In this document: piece by piece, positions 4,039 to 37,871 of the stretch
Layout: each line of letters starts with the position of its first letter
How positions within the stretch are numbered: the stretch's first letter is position 1
Assembly: GCA_902512325.1 (NCBI GenBank)
Contig: CABXIT010000002.1
Location: 5,009 to 69,008, forward strand
Source of the DNA: an uncultured Alphaproteobacteria bacterium
GTDB lineage: Bacteria > Pseudomonadota > Alphaproteobacteria > HIMB59 > GCA-002718135
DNA: 64,000 nt
Direction: 5' to 3'
Program-made: the position numbers and the translations under genes
Notes under the pieces: model-generated
The model's database searches: none
Told to the model about the DNA's origin: nothing
The model's input: only the letters and a program-made list of their open reading frames with translations

Positions 4039-4767
4039 ATGATCAAATTAGATAGTTTTTCTTTGTTTTTTGTTGCAAATTGGAAATTAAATGGAAATTT
4101 TAAGTTTATTGATCAATTTATAAGTAATATTTCCTTACCAAGAGATAAATCTAAATGTGTAGTTATCTGCCCTACATCAATTCATTTGGACTATATGTCA
4201 AAAAACATAAATGATTTTTATTTAGGTGCTCAGAATGTTTCACAGCATAAAGATGGTGCTTATACTGGAGAAATTTCAGTTAACTCATTGTCCGATTTAA
4301 ATGTTAATTTTTGTATTGTAGGACATTCAGAGAGAAGGCAAATTTTTTATGAGAAGAATGAGGAAATAAATCTCAAATCCGTAAATTTAATCAAAAATAA
4401 TTTAGTACCTATAATTTGTGTTGGTGAAACATTGCAGGAAAAAGAAAAGGGCATTACAAATGAAATTTTAGAAGAGCAGTTAAAAAACAGTATCCCGATC
4501 TCATCTAATTTTCAAAATACCATTATAGCTTATGAACCTGTTTGGGCAATAGGAACAGGGCTAACCCCTACAATCGAAGAAATTGATGTTACTCACCAAT
4601 TTATAAGAGAGCATAATGTTAAATTTAATAAATTTAAAATTTTATATGGAGGCTCTGTAAAGGCTGATAATGTAAAATTGATTACATCTTTATTGAATGT
4701 TGATGGAGCTCTAATTGGCGGAGCATCATTGAAAACAGATGAATTTACAAAGATAATTCAGGATTAA
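4039..4767 (+). CDS. tpiA: triosephosphate isomerase
   Basis: 242 aa with NWKLNG, IVGHSERR and AYEPVWAIGTG motifs. Confidence 0.95.
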   Translation: MIKLDSFSLFFVANWKLNGNFKFIDQFISNISLPRDKSKCVVICPTSIHLDYMSKNINDFYLGAQNVSQHKDGAYTGEISVNSLSDLNVNFCIVGHSERRQIFYEKNEEINLKSVNLIKNNLVPIICVGETLQEKEKGITNEILEEQLKNSIPISSNFQNTIIAYEPVWAIGTGLTPTIEEIDVTHQFIREHNVKFNKFKILYGGSVKADNVKLITSLLNVDGALIGGASLKTDEFTKIIQD

Positions 4768-4805: not shown

Positions 4806-5117
4806 ATGCTAACCTTAATAATAATTCAGCTGATTCTAGCAGTTCTTCTAGTAATATTTGTCTTACTTCAAGGTAGTGATAATGAGGGTTTAGGCCTAGG
4901 TGGTGGTGGTAGTATGGGGGGCATGATGTCTCCTAGAGGCTCAGCAAACCTATTATCAAGATTGACTGCATTAATAGCGACTTTATTTATGGTTATGAGC
5001 GTAATTCTGACAATTGTTGCCTCAGTAGGATCTGAGAAAAATGTCTTAGAATCCCTACCTTCTATCAATTCCAAAGAAGAAACATCACAAGAACCCGTCA
5101 TTCCTGAAAACAATTAA
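4806..5117 (+). CDS. secG: preprotein translocase subunit SecG
   Basis: 103 aa with two TM segments separated by a Gly-rich loop (GLGLGGGGSMGGMM). It occupies the conserved position after tpiA. Confidence 0.85.
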   Translation: MLTLIIIQLILAVLLVIFVLLQGSDNEGLGLGGGGSMGGMMSPRGSANLLSRLTALIATLFMVMSVILTIVASVGSEKNVLESLPSINSKEETSQEPVIPENN

Positions 5118-33113: not shown

Positions 33114-34581
33114 TTTAATTAAGGGAAAAGAACAAGAATGGGAAACTGTAATAGGTCTTGAAATACATGCTCAAGTAAAATCAAATTCAAAATTATTTAG
33201 CAGTTCCTCTTCAACTTTTGGCTCGAAACCAAATAGTCAAGTCTCTTTAGTTGATGCTGCTATGCCAGGTATGCTCCCAGTAATTAATAAATACTGTATC
33301 GAACAAGCAATAAAAACTGGAATAGGGTTAAATGCAAAAATAAATAATTATTCTGTTTTCGATCGAAAAAATTACTTTTATGCTGATCTTCCTCAGGGCT
33401 ATCAAATTAGTCAATACAAACATCCTATTGTGGGGGAGGGGAAAGTCACTATTGATTTCAAAGATGGTAGTTCAAAAGATATCAGAATAGTGAGGCTTCA
33501 CTTAGAGCAAGATGCGGGCAAAAGTATTCATGATCAAAATCCAACAAAAACATATGTTGATTTAAATAGGTCAGGAGTTGCTTTAATGGAAATTGTAAGT
33601 GAGCCAGATATCAGAAGCGCAGATGAAGCAGGTTTGTATATTTCAAAAATAAGATCAATTTTGATGTATCTTGATACTTGTGATGGAAACATGCAAGAAG
33701 GGTCTCTACGTGCTGATGTAAATATTTCAGTGAGAAAACTTGACGATAAATATGGGACCAGGTGTGAGATTAAAAATTTAAATTCCATTAAATTTATTAA
33801 ACAGGCAATTAATTATGAAGTAAAAAGACAGATTGAAGTTCTTGAGGAAGGGGGTGTTATTGAGCAAAACACGCTCTTGTTTAATACATCTACAGGCAAA
33901 ACAAGACCCATGAGAAGTAAAGAAGAGGCACATGATTACAGATATTTTCCAGATCCTGATTTATTGCCTTTAGAAATAGATCAAGAAGATATTGATAAAT
34001 TAAAAAAAACGATCACAGAATTACCAGATGATAGAAAAAAAAGATATGTAGATGATTACAATTTATCTAACTATGATGCATCAGTTTTAACTGCAGATAA
34101 ATTTGTATCTGATTATTTCGACAATGTAATTAAATTTGATAAAACACTTAAAAAGTCTTCAAAGATTGTTGTAAATTGGATTACATCAGAATTATTTTCA
34201 CTTTTAAACGAAAATAATATTGAAATTAATAATTCTCCAATAACTCCTCAGTATTTAGGTAAGTTAGTAAAATTATTAAAAGAGGATATAATCTCAGGTA
34301 AGATTGCTAAAGATGTTTTAGTTGAAATGTTTAATACAAAAAAAGATCCAGAAAAAATTATAGAACAAAAAGGATTAAAGCAGGTTACTGACACAAGTGA
34401 AATTGAAAATATTGTCAATGAAGTTCTTCAAGAAAATCAAAAAATGGTTGATCAATATTTATCAGGTAAAGATAAACTACTTGGGTTTTTTGTTGGACAA
34501 ACTATGAAAAAAAGTAAAGGAAAAGCTAATCCTAAAATTTTAAATGAAATTTTACAATCCAAGTTATCCAAGAAAAATTAA
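33106..34581 (+). CDS. gatB: Asp/Glu-tRNA(Asn/Gln) amidotransferase subunit B
   Basis: 491 aa with WETVIGLEIHAQ, DRKNYFYADLPQGYQISQ and a C-terminal YqeY-like tail. Confidence 0.95.
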   Translation: MSNLIKGKEQEWETVIGLEIHAQVKSNSKLFSSSSSTFGSKPNSQVSLVDAAMPGMLPVINKYCIEQAIKTGIGLNAKINNYSVFDRKNYFYADLPQGYQISQYKHPIVGEGKVTIDFKDGSSKDIRIVRLHLEQDAGKSIHDQNPTKTYVDLNRSGVALMEIVSEPDIRSADEAGLYISKIRSILMYLDTCDGNMQEGSLRADVNISVRKLDDKYGTRCEIKNLNSIKFIKQAINYEVKRQIEVLEEGGVIEQNTLLFNTSTGKTRPMRSKEEAHDYRYFPDPDLLPLEIDQEDIDKLKKTITELPDDRKKRYVDDYNLSNYDASVLTADKFVSDYFDNVIKFDKTLKKSSKIVVNWITSELFSLLNENNIEINNSPITPQYLGKLVKLLKEDIISGKIAKDVLVEMFNTKKDPEKIIEQKGLKQVTDTSEIENIVNEVLQENQKMVDQYLSGKDKLLGFFVGQTMKKSKGKANPKILNEILQSKLSKKN

Positions 34582-34902
34582 ACGAAGTGTAAAAATTCTA
34601 TATGATAAGAATAAAAAAGTTGCAACTACCCATATTATGCTTCCATTATAATTTTCTGCTGATCTCCAAATTCCCACAGTAATTAGAATTGTCCAAAAAA
34701 TTAATAAAAGTTTAGTAAATAATGTAAAATTGCTAAAATCTAAAAAAGGTAAATAGCTTGTAAATTGATTATTACCAAATGCATAAATCTCGAGATTAAA
34801 AATTACTAATGTAAATAAGGCATTTAATAATTCACCAACTAACCAATAAGATCTCCATAGAGTGATTTCCCCTCTCCAAAATCTGCTAATTATTTTTTTC
34901 AT
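34564..34902 (-). CDS. small hypothetical membrane protein (about 3 TM)
   Basis: A 112-aa hydrophobic ORF that converges on gatB with an 18-nt overlap. No recognisable motif. It is the last gene before the tRNA-Ser half-repeat. Confidence 0.45.
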   Translation of the reverse strand: MKKIISRFWRGEITLWRSYWLVGELLNALFTLVIFNLEIYAFGNNQFTSYLPFLDFSNFTLFTKLLLIFWTILITVGIWRSAENYNGSIIWVVATFLFLSYRIFTLRLIFLG

Positions 34903-35014
34903 ATTTTATTTCTTTTAAATTATTACATTAATAAAATCCTCAACTTAATTTAAATATTAATGAATATAGTTGAGTTTCTAGTTACATTTCATTAATAAGG
35001 ATATATGAATCATA

Positions 35015-35061
35015 TACAGGAGAGATGGGTGAGTGGCTTAAACCACAGGTTTGCTAAACCT
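35015..35061 (+). repeat. left direct repeat: orphan 5' half of tRNA-Ser(GCU) (4 upstream nt + tRNA nt 1-43)
   Basis: tacaggagagatgggtgagtggcttaaaccacaggtttgctaaacct is identical (47/47) to 37776-37822. Identity stops exactly at the 3' end of the anticodon stem. Confidence 0.95.
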
Positions 35062-35361
35062 TTGAATTTTGTACTTTCTTGTTAAATATTTCTCAGTAAT
35101 CCAACAAAAACATTTCCAATAACATCATTTCACGGCAACTGTGGACCACGTACGTATCACTTTGCTCTCAAAACTAGTATGAGGACACTAAGGAATTCGA
35201 AGCAACGAATTTGGGTCCCTTGTGCCCTCTATTTCCCTATAAAGATATTAAAAGAAATACCAAACGATTATGTAAATTAATCCAACTCACCAATTAAACT
35301 ACCCTTTCCCCTCGTTATTTTCCCTCTTAATCCCGTATCGGTATTGTGTTAGGTTATCGTG

Positions 35362-35865
35362 ATGAATAGAAAAGGTTTCTCTCTTATCGAACTCTTAGTT
35401 GTTGTTGCGATCATTGGTATCTTAGCAGCAGTAGGGATTGTAGCATATAGCGGGTATACAAATAGTGCTAAAGTTAATGCTGTGAAGGCAAATCATAAAC
35501 TTGCAGTAAAAATAATCAACCAAGAATTAATGCGTTGTCAGTTAGAGGATAAAATACAAATGTATAATGGGTCAACAAAAAAATGTGAAGATTCACCTTG
35601 TCAATGGTCACCTCACCCTTTTAGTTATAATTTTTATAAAATAAGTAGTTGTTTGGACAGCGGTGATACTTTTAAAAATAATCCTTTTAATAATGCAGAT
35701 CCTAATGGAGGATACCGCGCAACTTCAACAATACCAACTGTAGCTGAAATAGGAAGAACCCATTGCAATTTTGATAGTCTAAAAAATCCAGTAGTAATAT
35801 GTAGTTCTCGTTGGGGAACAGGAACTAATGATTATGAACTGACAAATATTTCAGATCCTTTTTAA
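35362..35865 (+). CDS. type IV pilin (prepilin with class III signal peptide), paralogue 1
   Basis: MNRKG|FSLIELLVVVAIIGILAAVGIVAYSGYT has a short basic leader ending in Gly, Phe+1 and Glu+5, and a hydrophobic alpha1-N helix. The Cys-containing variable C-terminus is similar to paralogue 3. An ATG at 35362 follows the track's GTG at 35359. Confidence 0.88.
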   Translation: MNRKGFSLIELLVVVAIIGILAAVGIVAYSGYTNSAKVNAVKANHKLAVKIINQELMRCQLEDKIQMYNGSTKKCEDSPCQWSPHPFSYNFYKISSCLDSGDTFKNNPFNNADPNGGYRATSTIPTVAEIGRTHCNFDSLKNPVVICSSRWGTGTNDYELTNISDPF

Positions 35866-35871
35866 ATAACA

Positions 35872-35922
35872 ATGAAAAAAGCTTTCTCTATTATTGAATT
35901 AAATGTTATAAATTGGTTATGA
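35872..35922 (+). pseudogene. truncated pilin 5' remnant (MKKAFSIIELNVINWL*)
   Basis: The first 29 nt (atgaaaaaagctttctctattattgaatt) match the pilin-2 start at 26/29 positions. The Gly(-1) is replaced by Ala and the frame stops after 16 codons. Confidence 0.6.
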
Positions 35923-36338
35923 TTGAAAATTTTGGTAATATTTTTTATCTGATCATTCACGTTTTAATTACTGGATTGTTTGGAGTTTATATTGTGAGAA
36001 TATATTTTGCTCCTGAAGGTCTAGTAAAAGAATTTAACATAGACAGGAGTGGTATCTATCTTATCAGGTTTATCGGAACCTTTGCATTTGGTTTCTTCTT
36101 AATGGGAATTTATATTATCTTTAGATCAGGCGGTCCTGAAGGAGCATGGATGTATTATAACTTGATTTTTATTATTGCAGCATCTCAACTTTTATATGAA
36201 TCTTTATTTTATTTTAAGTTAATAGATAAGGATCTCGAAGCTAAAAATAGCTTAACTGATCTAGTCCTTTCAGTGTTCATGGTTGTGGCACCGGCAATAC
36301 TTATATGGGGATTATCAGATAGAATTTATACAATATAA
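35919..36338 (+). CDS. hypothetical 4-TM membrane protein inside pilin islet
   Basis: About 139 aa from the ATG at 35919 (track TTG at 35913) with four hydrophobic helices. No recognisable motif. Confidence 0.5.
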   Translation: MIENFGNIFYLIIHVLITGLFGVYIVRIYFAPEGLVKEFNIDRSGIYLIRFIGTFAFGFFLMGIYIIFRSGGPEGAWMYYNLIFIIAASQLLYESLFYFKLIDKDLEAKNSLTDLVLSVFMVVAPAILIWGLSDRIYTI

Positions 36339-36377
36339 AAGATCCATATTAAAACTATCTCAAGATTATCAATATTA

Positions 36378-36545
36378 GTGGTGCAAATCTGTAATACTTG
36401 CTAACATTTTTTTTTAACAAATATTTGTTTTGGGTGTATCTTATTCCAATGAAAAAAGGTTTCTCTCTTATTGAACTCTTAGTCGTTGTTGCGATCATTG
36501 GTATTTTAGCAGCAGTGGGAATTGTTGCGTATAGTGGGTATACCG
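36378..36545 (+). repeat. pilin cassette repeat copy A (71-nt upstream region + first ~96 nt of pilin 2)
   Basis: gtggtgcaaatctgtaatacttgctaaca-T9-aacaaatatt... aligns with 36973-37140 with only a few substitutions. Confidence 0.9.
36398..36427 (+). promoter_or_regulatory. candidate promoter of pilin 2 (TTGCTA-N18-TATTTG) with T9 tract in spacer
   Basis: The hexamers are read directly and the T9 tract lies at 36407-36415. Its conservation in copy B is the main support. Confidence 0.3.
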
Positions 36546-36970
36546 AGAGCGCTAAGATTAATGCTGCTAAAGCAAATCACAAAGTAGTTGTTAATTTTGT
36601 AGCAACAAGTTTGGCAAAATGTGACACAGGCCAACAATTAATTTTAAAACAAAATCCTACTACAAATACTGGGGACTTGTGTTCTCTAGTTATATCTGGA
36701 AACGTTAATCAATTAGCTACTAACTTTGTTGGTCATTTTAGAAGTCTAAAGTGGTGTAATCCTTTTGGCTGGAGAGGAGGGAGCGTTTGTGCTGAAGCAG
36801 TAGAAGCGGGAGGCACAGTGGGAGAGGGAACTGTAGGTGCAACAAAAATAATTACTAAATCAGGTTCTAAAACTTTATATATTGATACAAAATATACGTG
36901 TGGAAGCAGTGGTCAGACAGAGCTTTGCAGAACAGGAGAAACCCTAACAGATTTTATGGAAGTAAAATAA
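36449..36970 (+). CDS. type IV pilin, paralogue 2
   Basis: Begins MKKG|FSLIELLVVVAIIGILAAVGIVAYSGYT. The divergent C-terminus has a terminal Cys pair (YTCGSSGQTELC), which is disulfide-loop-like. The track ORF start at 36398 reads through the duplicated non-coding leader and was trimmed. Confidence 0.88.
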   Translation: MKKGFSLIELLVVVAIIGILAAVGIVAYSGYTESAKINAAKANHKVVVNFVATSLAKCDTGQQLILKQNPTTNTGDLCSLVISGNVNQLATNFVGHFRSLKWCNPFGWRGGSVCAEAVEAGGTVGEGTVGATKIITKSGSKTLYIDTKYTCGSSGQTELCRTGETLTDFMEVK

Positions 36971-36972
36971 TT

Positions 36973-37140
36973 GTGGTGCAAATCTGTAACACTTGCTAAC
37001 ATTTTTTTTTAACAAATATTAATTTTGGGTGTATCTTATTTAAATGAAAAAAGGTTTCTCTCTTATCGAACTCTTAGTCGTAGTTGCAATTATAGGTATT
37101 TTAGCAGCAGTAGGAATTGTTGCGTATAGTGGGTATACGA
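36973..37140 (+). repeat. pilin cassette repeat copy B (71-nt upstream region + first ~96 nt of pilin 3)
   Basis: See copy A. It begins 2 nt after the pilin 2 stop codon. Confidence 0.9.
36993..37022 (+). promoter_or_regulatory. candidate promoter of pilin 3 (TTGCTA-N18-TATTAA) with T9 tract in spacer
   Basis: Same architecture as copy A, with the T9 tract at 37002-37010. Confidence 0.3.
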
Positions 37141-37541
37141 GTGGTGCAAAAGTTACAGCAACAAAAGCTAATCATGCACTAGTTGCTAAAATTATTCAAG
37201 CGGAAATTATGAGATGTAGTTTTGGTGAGGAACCACAGTTATCTCAAGGTATTAATCTTAAATGTAATGAAATTAGTCAGAAAAAAATTTCAGATCCTTG
37301 GTATCTAGCAACAAAGTTTGCTCAGCATTTTACAATTATACACAATAATACAGGAGAACAACAATGGAAAAATTTATTTGACAATGGAGCAGGAGTACAA
37401 CCTACTAAGAATACACAGTGTAATCTTAATACTTTAGGTCAATCAAGTATTGCGGGGAGAAAAAATGAAATAATTGTGATTACTAGATATGGAACAGGAA
37501 ATAACGATTGCCTTATTACAGTTGTATCTAGTGAGTTTTAA
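37044..37541 (+). CDS. type IV pilin, paralogue 3
   Basis: Begins MKKG|FSLIELLVVVAIIGILAAVGIVAYSGYT. The C-terminal half parallels paralogue 1 (EIMRCSF.. vs ELMRCQL..; RYGTGNNDC vs RWGTGTNDY). Confidence 0.88.
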   Translation: MKKGFSLIELLVVVAIIGILAAVGIVAYSGYTSGAKVTATKANHALVAKIIQAEIMRCSFGEEPQLSQGINLKCNEISQKKISDPWYLATKFAQHFTIIHNNTGEQQWKNLFDNGAGVQPTKNTQCNLNTLGQSSIAGRKNEIIVITRYGTGNNDCLITVVSSEF

Positions 37542-37775
37542 ATGAAAAAACTTTTTTTTAACCTTAGTGACGAGCGAAAAAAGAATCACTAATGAGGTCA
37601 CAATCAACGAAAAATCCATGGACCTCACACGTATCAATATAGTGTATTATTTATTAATATTTCATGCTAAATAATAATTAAGAAAGTAGAGCGATTACAT
37701 TGTGTGAAGTGCAGAATGTTATTGAGATACTTGGAAATTTTAACTAAGAGGGTTAATAGTTTACGATGATAAATT

Positions 37776-37822
37776 TACAGGAGAGATGGGTGAGTGGCTT
37801 AAACCACAGGTTTGCTAAACCT
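37776..37822 (+). repeat. right direct repeat (part of the intact tRNA-Ser gene)
   Basis: Identical (47/47) to 35015-35061. Confidence 0.95.
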
Positions 37823-37871
37823 GCGAAGAGGGTAACCTCTTCCGAGGGTTCGAATCCCTCTCTCTCCGCCA
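37780..37871 (+). tRNA. tRNA-Ser (anticodon GCU), class II with long variable arm, CCA encoded
   Basis: Manual fold: acceptor GGAGAGA/TCTCTCC, anticodon stem CAGGT/ACCTG with loop TTGCTAA, variable arm GAAGAGG-GTAA-CCTCTTC, T arm GAGGG-TTCGAAT-CCCTC, discriminator G and 3' CCA. Confidence 0.95.

Follow-up and report, generated by a model that had tools for sequence, protein, structure and literature searches.

A pilin-bearing islet at tRNA-Ser(GCU) of an uncultured alphaproteobacterium is probably an integrase-less derivative of small SAR11 elements

SAR11 is the most abundant group of bacteria in the ocean, and its surface-gene islands vary from cell to cell. Descriptions of the group have long portrayed it as almost devoid of mobile elements. 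We analyzed a 64-kb stretch of DNA (64,000 nt, hereafter the window) from an uncultured Alphaproteobacteria bacterium of the HIMB59 lineage (positions 5,009 to 69,008 of contig CABXIT010000002.1, GenBank assembly GCA_902512325.1), in which an islet of ~2.8 kb with pilin-like genes is bounded on its left by a copy of the 5' half of tRNA-Ser(GCU) and on its right by the complete tRNA gene. In concept, the described systems closest to the islet appear to be the cis-mobilizable elements (CIMEs) of streptococcal integrative elements, which have the attachment sites of an autonomous element, lack recombination genes and are moved by the integrase of a relative. The islet was likewise found to be bounded by attachment-site sequence of integrase-bearing relatives (the tRNA core and the first ~50 bases of the adjoining arm) and to contain no recombination genes. 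Mobilization has been established by experiment for CIMEs, whereas for the islet it would be deduced from the distribution of its arms. With regard to cargo, a comparison is offered by the pilin locus of Pseudomonas aeruginosa, which adjoins tRNA-Thr and comprises divergent pilin alleles with accessory genes that are horizontally exchanged; we know of no partial tRNA duplication or integrase family tied to that locus.

Tycheposons of Prochlorococcus, which combine a tyrosine recombinase with a primase/helicase, are found at tRNAs, form tandems, and leave partial tRNAs and degenerate remnants that build islands (10.1101/2020.12.28.424599). The SAR11 element family reported here shares with them its integrase-primase content, a tRNA target, tandems that are split by partial tRNAs, and decay, a resemblance that is architectural. 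It differs in its host and in its target, tRNA-Ser GCU, whereas tycheposon targets include Ser TGA, and the text of the tycheposon paper makes no mention of SAR11. Another described type, the integrative mobile elements encapsidated in virions (VEIMEs), are small phage satellites with a tyrosine integrase and replication genes that are integrated in Pelagibacter (PMC9618062). A 7.4-kb member of the family described below (L097+L001) fits VEIME gene content; however, VEIMEs are defined by packaging in virus particles, the element family is known here from sequence, and the islet lacks the hallmark genes. Additive islands marked by recurring tRNA-end repeats have been reported in Methylophilaceae (PMC10872708). 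For SAR11 itself, the available text of a study of genomic islands describes seven islands next to tRNAs, four of them with a partial tRNA repeat and read as cassette insertion, in which a single integrase and no canonical mobile element were present (PMC11796062). The initial annotation of the window had treated the absence of an integrase as unusual, a view that was not sustained, as such islands, with hardly any integrases, are already on record in that text. Neither the source element family nor the candidate attP-carrying phages described here feature in the available part of that study.

The repeat that bounds the islet was recomputed, and window positions 35015-35061 and 37776-37822 were identical at 47/47 positions as a direct repeat, with flanking bases that differ on both sides (ATGAATCATA and TTGAATTTTG around the left copy, ATGATAAATT and GCGAAGAGGG around the right copy), as the initial annotation had stated. 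The repeat consists of four upstream bases followed by bases 1-43 of tRNA-Ser(GCU), again as described. Its end had been placed exactly at the 3' side of the anticodon stem and lies one base short of it, since the 3' strand of that stem, with the base-pairing done by hand, comprises tRNA bases 40-44. ARAGORN called tRNA-Ser(GCU) at the right copy as the sole tRNA in the window. The Rfam tRNA model scored this copy at 58.4 bits and the left copy (35019-35094) at 23.7 bits, below the family threshold of 29 bits, in agreement with the earlier statement that only the right copy continues into a complete tRNA-Ser. The islet thus has partial-tRNA direct repeats at both ends and an intact tRNA at one end, the arrangement of a tRNA-targeting integrative element.

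An exact search with the 43-base tRNA query found 81 SAR11-type genome stretches. Between lineages, the 5' half of tRNA-Ser was invariant and the 3' half varied in the variable arm. As the 5' half is so widely conserved, the perfect 47/47 identity of the two copies is no evidence of recency. In related elements the shared tRNA block stops at base 42, which indicates that the functional core is approximately bases 1-42 and that the extension of the repeat to 47 bases is partly coincidental; the ACA immediately 5' of the tRNA was common to most of the flanks compared.

The islet is an insertion at the 5' half of tRNA-Ser. To place it against its relatives, we surveyed the 41 genomes that had both the neighboring gene for a 112-aa protein and the tRNA on one retrieved stretch. 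In nine of these genomes the target site was empty, the tRNA lying 111-209 bp from the 112-aa gene, and the other 32 were occupied by 1-5 kb of differing cargo. The cargo included glycosyl- or sulfotransferase-like genes and a recurrent pair of genes for 270-aa and 385-aa proteins, and among the genomes surveyed, pilins were found at this locus in the window and in L060, a single-amplified genome (SAG; AG-319-E03), only. The 116 bp before the left copy were 84-85% identical to the region upstream of the intact tRNA in the empty-site genomes L014, L029 and L034, and the spacing from the 112-aa gene was 113-116 bp in the window and these three genomes alike. By contrast, the sequence before the right copy was unrelated to this native flank apart from promoter-like motifs. 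The position of the left copy on the native flank indicates that it occupies the ancestral tRNA position and that the working tRNA has acquired a new upstream region. The comparison of the gatB-dapA interval that the initial annotation had called for therefore yielded both empty sites (n=9) and alternative cargo (n=32), and bore out its interpretation of the islet as the footprint of site-specific insertion into a tRNA gene as well as its suggestion of a variable cassette site.

The source of the insertion was indicated by truncated tRNA halves at the same site in other genomes. A search pattern that excluded the normal tRNA continuation found three of these, in single-cell genomes, each represented by two adjoining 8-kb stretches (L095+L031, L096+L066 and L097+L001) whose joining was assumed, with one open reading frame (ORF) spanning each join. 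The element of AG-893-O09 (L097+L001) has a length of 7.4 kb and consists of the half-tRNA, an arm similar to that of the window, a 333-aa integrase (PF00589, E = 7e-27; PHROG integrase, E = 7e-64), small ORFs, a 701-aa DNA primase of the DUF5906/VapE type, a non-coding arm of ~600 nt and the full tRNA. In AG-313-N13 (L096+L066), a 110-aa fragment of an integrase is left in the 8.5-kb element, and an ABC transporter, an O-antigen-ligase-like gene and a cytidylyltransferase come after it; the 2.2-kb element of AG-916-I08 (L095+L031) has one gene and no integrase. A degenerate junction pattern matched ten metagenome contigs. L098 has gatB, the 112-aa gene, the half-tRNA, an arm 38/48 identical to that of the window and a 334-aa integrase, in that order. 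L105 begins at the half-tRNA, and has an arm as in L098 and an integrase identical to that of L098. In L103 (1-13485), a half-tRNA with a one-base insertion lies between two related integrase-primase elements that are arranged in tandem. In L099, L102 and L107, the end of an element leads into arm, core and arm and then an integrase; these end-to-start junctions represent either excised circles, concatemers or further tandems. Most of the family integrases were 74-96% identical to one another, with the first integrase of L103 (L103a) at ~50%.

Comparison of the 48 bases that follow the core in the window with the same position elsewhere placed the islet in this family. Identity was highest to L104, a metagenome contig considered below (44/48), followed by L098 and L105 (38/48), other family members (27-34/48) and the degenerate copy in L030 (22/48), with phages at 13-21/48 and the tRNA itself at 16/48. 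Alignment of the first 50 bases after the core between the window and L098 gave z = 10 against shuffles. Based on these identities, the left junction of the islet belongs to the small integrase-primase element family and not to phages. The integrase-bearing relatives that share the junction sequence also support the option of a decayed integrative element raised in the initial annotation. An integrase was present in L097, L098, L099, L103, L105 and L107 and was not found in the islet, which is therefore filed as a non-autonomous derivative. The combination of an integrase with a replication module that marks a phage satellite is present in L097+L001 and absent from the islet. Neither the family junction nor the arms were found in the viral contigs of IMG/VR, a collection that is not particle-resolved, and no integrase relatives were confirmed there.

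The arms of the islet are shared across genomes that differ in their cargo. In L104, which derives from a relative, the left copy, the left arm to window position 35306 and the right arm from 37552 all recur in one piece, with a lone fatty-acid desaturase (PF00487) and no pilins as the cargo between the arms. L060 has the same arms with a different first pilin and pil2, and it lacks pil3 and the membrane protein gene. The identities of both contigs to the window (Table 1) were far from uniform. Between the window and L104 the tRNA differed at four positions, all in the 3' variable arm. The two cores mark the limits of high identity, which fits site-specific recombination and not homologous replacement through the flanking genes. 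The pattern of identity indicates horizontal spread of the arms with variable cargo between them. In addition, the window and L060 share an arm-leader-pilin junction that has no integrase, suggesting that the stripped form itself was transferred.

Table 1. Nucleotide identity to the window, by segment. The contig of L060 does not include gatCAB, the 112-aa gene, the native flank, the core or the first 50 arm bases.
Segment	L104	L060
gatCAB	86.7%	
112-aa gene	75.0%	
Native flank	86.4%	
Core	100%	
First 50 bases of left arm	92%	
Left-arm interior	96.4%	98.9% over 90 nt on contig; 99.3% for 35217-35362 (interior plus leader)
pil2	absent	96.7%
Right arm	100% (228/228)	96.1%
tRNA	95.7%	96.7%
dapA	83.7%	78.5%

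Temperate pelagiphages also use tRNA sites of this kind. In HTVC019P-type pelagiphages, attP lies between the integrase and the RNA polymerase, and the cores of 11-46 bp are often located at the 5' end of a SAR11 tRNA gene (bioRxiv 10.1101/410191); an HTVC010P-type phage has a 40-bp core at the 5' end of tRNA-Asn (PMC8477408). Since pelagiphages often use the 5' ends of SAR11 tRNA genes, duplication of the 5' half is the local norm and not, as the initial annotation had it, an oddity. That annotation had also proposed the 47-mer as a possible attP in pelagiphages. The exact 47-mer gave zero matches in viral contigs, as did a 19-mer ending at base 43, because the phage copies stop at base 42, and a 5'-anchored pattern was needed to reveal them. 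This 23-mer identified seven viral contigs (L085 and L089-L094) with tRNA-Ser bases 1-42 followed by divergence, four of them with one mismatch, so that the shorter core is indeed present in viral sequence. In L085, a 320-aa integrase (PF00589) is followed by the tRNA half and a T7-like RNA polymerase (PF00940), and the tRNA half of L092 (one mismatch, AATCC for AAACC) has the same polymerase gene after it. The contigs in which the tRNA half leads into an RNA polymerase gene are L085, L090, L092, L093 and L094. Cultured Pelagibacter phages such as HTVC134P and HTVC120P have integrases with 57-58% identity to that of L085. By analogy with the cultured phages, the viral copy of tRNA-Ser bases 1-42 between integrase and RNA polymerase is a candidate attP. 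A GenBank phage collection searched with the left junction returned only unrelated phage tRNA-Ser genes, and no link between pelagiphage integration and tRNA-Ser was found in the literature searched.

Tyrosine integrases that adjoin tRNA-Ser bases 1-42 fell into at least four groups, namely one small-element family and three viral-contig layouts counted separately. These groups are distantly related or unrelated (the small-element and phage integrases were 21-30% identical), which points to convergence on one attachment site. The layout of integrase, tRNA-Ser 1-42 and RNA polymerase on the viral contigs is that of temperate pelagiphages (10.1101/410191; PMC8477408), whereas the islet has no phage genes and its junction is not phage-like.

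The absence of a recombinase, as stated in the initial annotation, was confirmed for the islet and for the whole window. Ten integrase queries gave one weak match in the 64 kb (E=0.025) and none in the islet. The weak match, at 4255-4473, was attributed to chance, as its translation reads as a triosephosphate-isomerase-like ORF. A possible integrase stub in the left arm, beginning at an ATG at 35190 (129 nt past the core, compared with 123 nt in L097/L098), was rejected: its start loosely resembles that of the integrase, but the best tblastn E was 0.99, and nucleotide similarity past the first 50 bases (z = 1.1-1.3) was not significant. The motif TGGACC(N4)ACGTATCA occurs in both arms, at 35141-35158 and 37620-37637, in the same orientation and with 15/18 identical bases. 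It was considered as an arm-type integrase binding site and was not supported as such, as it gave z = 1.0 against shuffles and there was no within-element pattern across four elements. In the search of the arms for structured RNA, only the tRNA matched in Rfam, and the fold z-scores were +0.70 and -0.92.

Window positions 35233-35297 were 97% identical, in inverted orientation, to positions 1254-1318 of L105, a 65-nt piece that lies 36 nt after the integrase stop codon, and 88% identical to L098 (167-231). The inverted piece hints at a rearrangement that removed the integrase.

Taken together, we consider it likely that the islet is an integrase-less, non-autonomous derivative of small SAR11 elements that have a tyrosine integrase and a primase and that insert in the 5' half of tRNA-Ser(GCU). 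In the proposed mechanism, tRNA bases 1-42 would have been present in the element as a copy flanked by two arms, and the family integrase would have recombined this arm-core-arm site with the tRNA gene of the chromosome. This would have displaced the native upstream flank and the native 5' half leftward (the latter now at 35015-35061), and the right arm and the 5' half of the element itself would have been fused to the native 3' half to form the working tRNA at 37780-37871. The integrase and the primase (replication) genes would later have been lost, leaving the two arms (35062-35306 and 37552-37779) around swappable cargo. The stripped islet would then have spread, either with an integrase provided in trans by a resident relative or by double crossover within the cores (43 bases) or within the arms (~230-245 nt). 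Excision is predicted to give a junction of right arm, core and left arm that reads ...GATGATAAATTTACA + tRNA bases 1-42 + TTTGAATTTTGTAC..., and the 47-base repeats could also allow RecA-mediated loss that would restore the empty site.

That the islet moved after the loss of its integrase is something we infer from the shared arms, and mobilization in trans is plausible on the same grounds. The alternative that comes nearest to this interpretation is that each carrier gained a complete element and lost the integrase independently, that the islet is now an immobile relic, and that its arms are alike through recent acquisition. We consider this unlikely, while recognizing that a good number of observations would suit it: there is no integrase in the islet or window, no excised form was found in the viral contigs or species-representative genomes, in the DNA retrieved, the left half-copy is missing from most genomes whose upstream region is element-derived, so that decay is the usual fate, and the 110-aa integrase fragment of L096 shows decay in progress. 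However, the window and L060 share their integrase-less left junction of arm, leader and pilin at 99.3% when their dapA genes are only 78.5% identical, and the arm boundaries of the window recur in L104 with other cargo; independent deletions are not expected to end at the same bases. Several results do weigh against derivation from the element family followed by movement of the stripped form. The right arm was found in one species-representative genome only (L060), a circular or attP form of the islet was not found, and neither arm was present in the viral contigs searched. The homology of the left arm to the family covers only the first ~50 bases, beyond which z was 1.3 and -0.3, and the integrase start-codon stub at 35190 was unsupported. 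As the motif shared by the arms was not above chance, the sequence gives no evidence of arm-type integrase binding sites. The joins of L095+L031, L096+L066 and L097+L001 were assumed, supported by an ORF that spans each of them. Finally, separate gain of a full element and loss of its integrase is conceivable for each of the three carriers, yet the window and L060 share the arm-to-pilin junction.

Other origins of the islet were judged far less probable. A variable region could be swapped without any integrase by homologous recombination in its flanks, with the half-tRNA produced by illegitimate recombination or by duplication and decay. The interval is variable in most genomes, most of which lack a half-copy, and the 43-nt invariant tRNA half could act as a short homology anchor. 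Nevertheless, this explanation is quite improbable, as the half-copy ends within one base of the ends in the integrase-bearing elements and the phages, the sequence that follows it shows homology to the elements (z = 10), the tract of high identity finishes at the cores and does not extend into gatB or dapA, and 47 perfect bases beside an unrecognizable 3' half would not be retained in a decaying duplicate. Still more doubtful is an origin from a pelagiphage prophage at tRNA-Ser of which nearly all was later lost by deletion. It would accord with the three viral-contig groups that have tRNA-Ser 1-42 (one group with one mismatch) beside an integrase and with the similar integration of cultured pelagiphages (10.1101/410191). 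The bases after the core, however, match those of phages at a background level (13-21/48, compared with 16/48 for the tRNA itself and 27-44/48 for the small-element family), no phage genes or fragments were found in the islet, and the phage and small-element integrases are only 21-30% identical. We give almost no weight to the suggestion that a mis-join at a repeat produced the left half-copy. Assemblies can be broken or wrongly joined at short repeats, and two contigs of one metagenome-assembled genome (MAG; L004 and L073) do end in tRNA-Ser, but the independent contig L104 has the left copy, the same arms and the full tRNA in one piece, which shows that the islet is not an assembly artifact, and five other SAG or metagenome contigs have comparable half-copies with flanks on both sides.

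Insertions at this site appear to have left a wider mark on SAR11 genomes. The upstream region of tRNA-Ser gave BLAST matches to an element arm in at least 29 of 78 genomes and in none of the nine empty sites. A conserved block ending CATGNTA was present ~92-118 nt upstream of the tRNA in many of the element-derived regions and also in the right arm of the window. Judging from these matches, the upstream region and the front half of tRNA-Ser are element-derived in a large share of the sampled SAR11 genomes. In the DNA retrieved, the left half-copy was seen in few of the genomes with an element-derived upstream region. This rarity suggests that loss of the left junction is the usual fate and that the perfect pair in the window is the less common state.

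Three further observations concern the region upstream of the tRNA in other genomes. The ~250 nt upstream of tRNA-Ser(GCU) in L001-L081 comprised several unrelated sequence classes. In L030, a degenerate half-tRNA (bases 6-42, 92% identity; oriented positions 4548-4584) is located 2.5 kb upstream of the tRNA between two different cargo blocks, consistent with successive insertions that displaced older cargo. L004 and L073 both end inside tRNA-Ser with an overlap of ~55 nt, which looks like an assembly-graph branch resulting from population variation upstream of the tRNA.

The islet has four genes, all on the + strand (Table 2). Their products (three pilin-like proteins and one membrane protein), together with the non-coding stretches to the left (301 nt) and to the right (238 nt), agree with the earlier description of surface or membrane genes plus long non-coding DNA. 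PF07963 (N_methyl) was above threshold in all three pilin-like genes, identifying them as members of the type IV pilin/pseudopilin group. Pilin residues 4-33 were invariant among all the pilins compared, and the C-terminal domains were divergent. Exact-sequence look-ups of the four cargo proteins found none on record.

Table 2. Features of the islet and its borders in window coordinates.
Feature	Position	Strand	Basis or remark
112-aa neighbor gene	34564-34902	-	
Native upstream flank of tRNA-Ser, now stranded before half-copy	34903-35018	+	Likely promoter region; homology to empty-site flanks
attL core, tRNA-Ser(GCU) bases 1-43	35019-35061 (perfect repeat 35015-35061)	+	47/47 to right copy; not called by ARAGORN
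Element arm adjoining core (P' arm)	35062-35111	+	Common to integrase-bearing element family
Left-arm interior, conserved non-coding DNA	35112-35306	+	Identity to L104 and L060
pil1, type IV pilin-like	35362-35865	+	Pfam N_methyl, E = 1.4e-8; C-rich leader ~35250-35361 precedes
Truncated pilin start, 17 codons, MKKAFSIIELNVINWL*, cassette remnant	35872-35922	+	Read from sequence; repeat family D2 with real pilin starts
141-aa multi-pass membrane protein	35913-36338	+	ORF list; only a sub-threshold SLAC1 match
pil2, type IV pilin-like	36449-36970	+	Pfam N_methyl; repeated intergenic module 36371-36448 precedes
pil3, type IV pilin-like, extra cassette	37044-37541	+	Pfam N_methyl
Right arm (P arm), now upstream region of working tRNA	37552-37779	+	Identity to L104 and L060
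Functional tRNA-Ser(GCU); attR core = bases 1-43 (37780-37822; repeat from 37776)	37780-37871	+	ARAGORN, Rfam

The pilin genes behave as cassettes (window 35872-35922, 36371-36594, 36966-37189 and 37537-37555). A 224-nt repeat consisting of a promoter plus N-terminus (36371-36594 and 36966-37189) precedes pil2 and pil3, and the gap in the L060 version, which is without pil3, falls exactly between two TTTAAATGAAAAAA repeats. The boundaries of the cassettes are direct repeats within the pilin start regions. No attC-like elements bounding the cassettes were read in the inverted-repeat list, and no dedicated attC search was made. The C-rich leader of pil1 (35250-35362) recurs at 79-96% identity before unrelated genes in two marine MAG contigs, L082 (31-97) and L083 (4539-4668), where the genes that follow encode an 89-aa protein and a 460-aa secreted protein. 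The leader, which had no Rfam match, may be a shared promoter or 5'-UTR (untranslated region) module. A simple promoter and terminator scan did not flag the tRNA promoters and found no terminators, and the only promoter-like sites, before pil2 and pil3, were weak. All of the cargo genes point in the same direction as the stranded native promoter, which makes read-through expression plausible, and the stranded native tRNA promoter would thus be expected to read into the cargo. Pilins are also found in hypervariable region 4 (HVR4) of HTCC1062, together with a sulfotransferase and flanked by tRNAs (PMC2217521). We did not equate the locus with HVR4, as the boundary gene listed for that region is sarcosine dehydrogenase and not dapA.

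The general model for islands of this kind has already been published for Prochlorococcus and noted for SAR11, and the value of the locus is as a well-resolved example, with sequences that lend themselves to direct testing, and not as a new principle. The example names the target, identifies the integrase family and candidate attP-carrying phages, and documents the cross-species spread of an integrase-less pilin islet.

The locus gives a concrete route for the variation of surface genes in SAR11, consisting of a 42-base target in tRNA-Ser(GCU) and an integrase family that uses this target, and a stripped-down islet with pilins has crossed species boundaries. Pilins are common phage receptors in other bacteria, and we infer that pilin variation at the locus serves phage evasion or change of the cell surface. 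As a tentative proposal, to which we give somewhat less than an even chance, SAR11 may have integrase-less “cargo shuttles”, in which a copy of the tRNA-Ser 5' half and the pair of conserved arms that flank it are excised and re-inserted in trans by the integrase of resident elements, moving surface genes between species. If this proposal is correct, the cargo shuttles would, as a side effect, replace the promoter and the front half of an essential tRNA gene.

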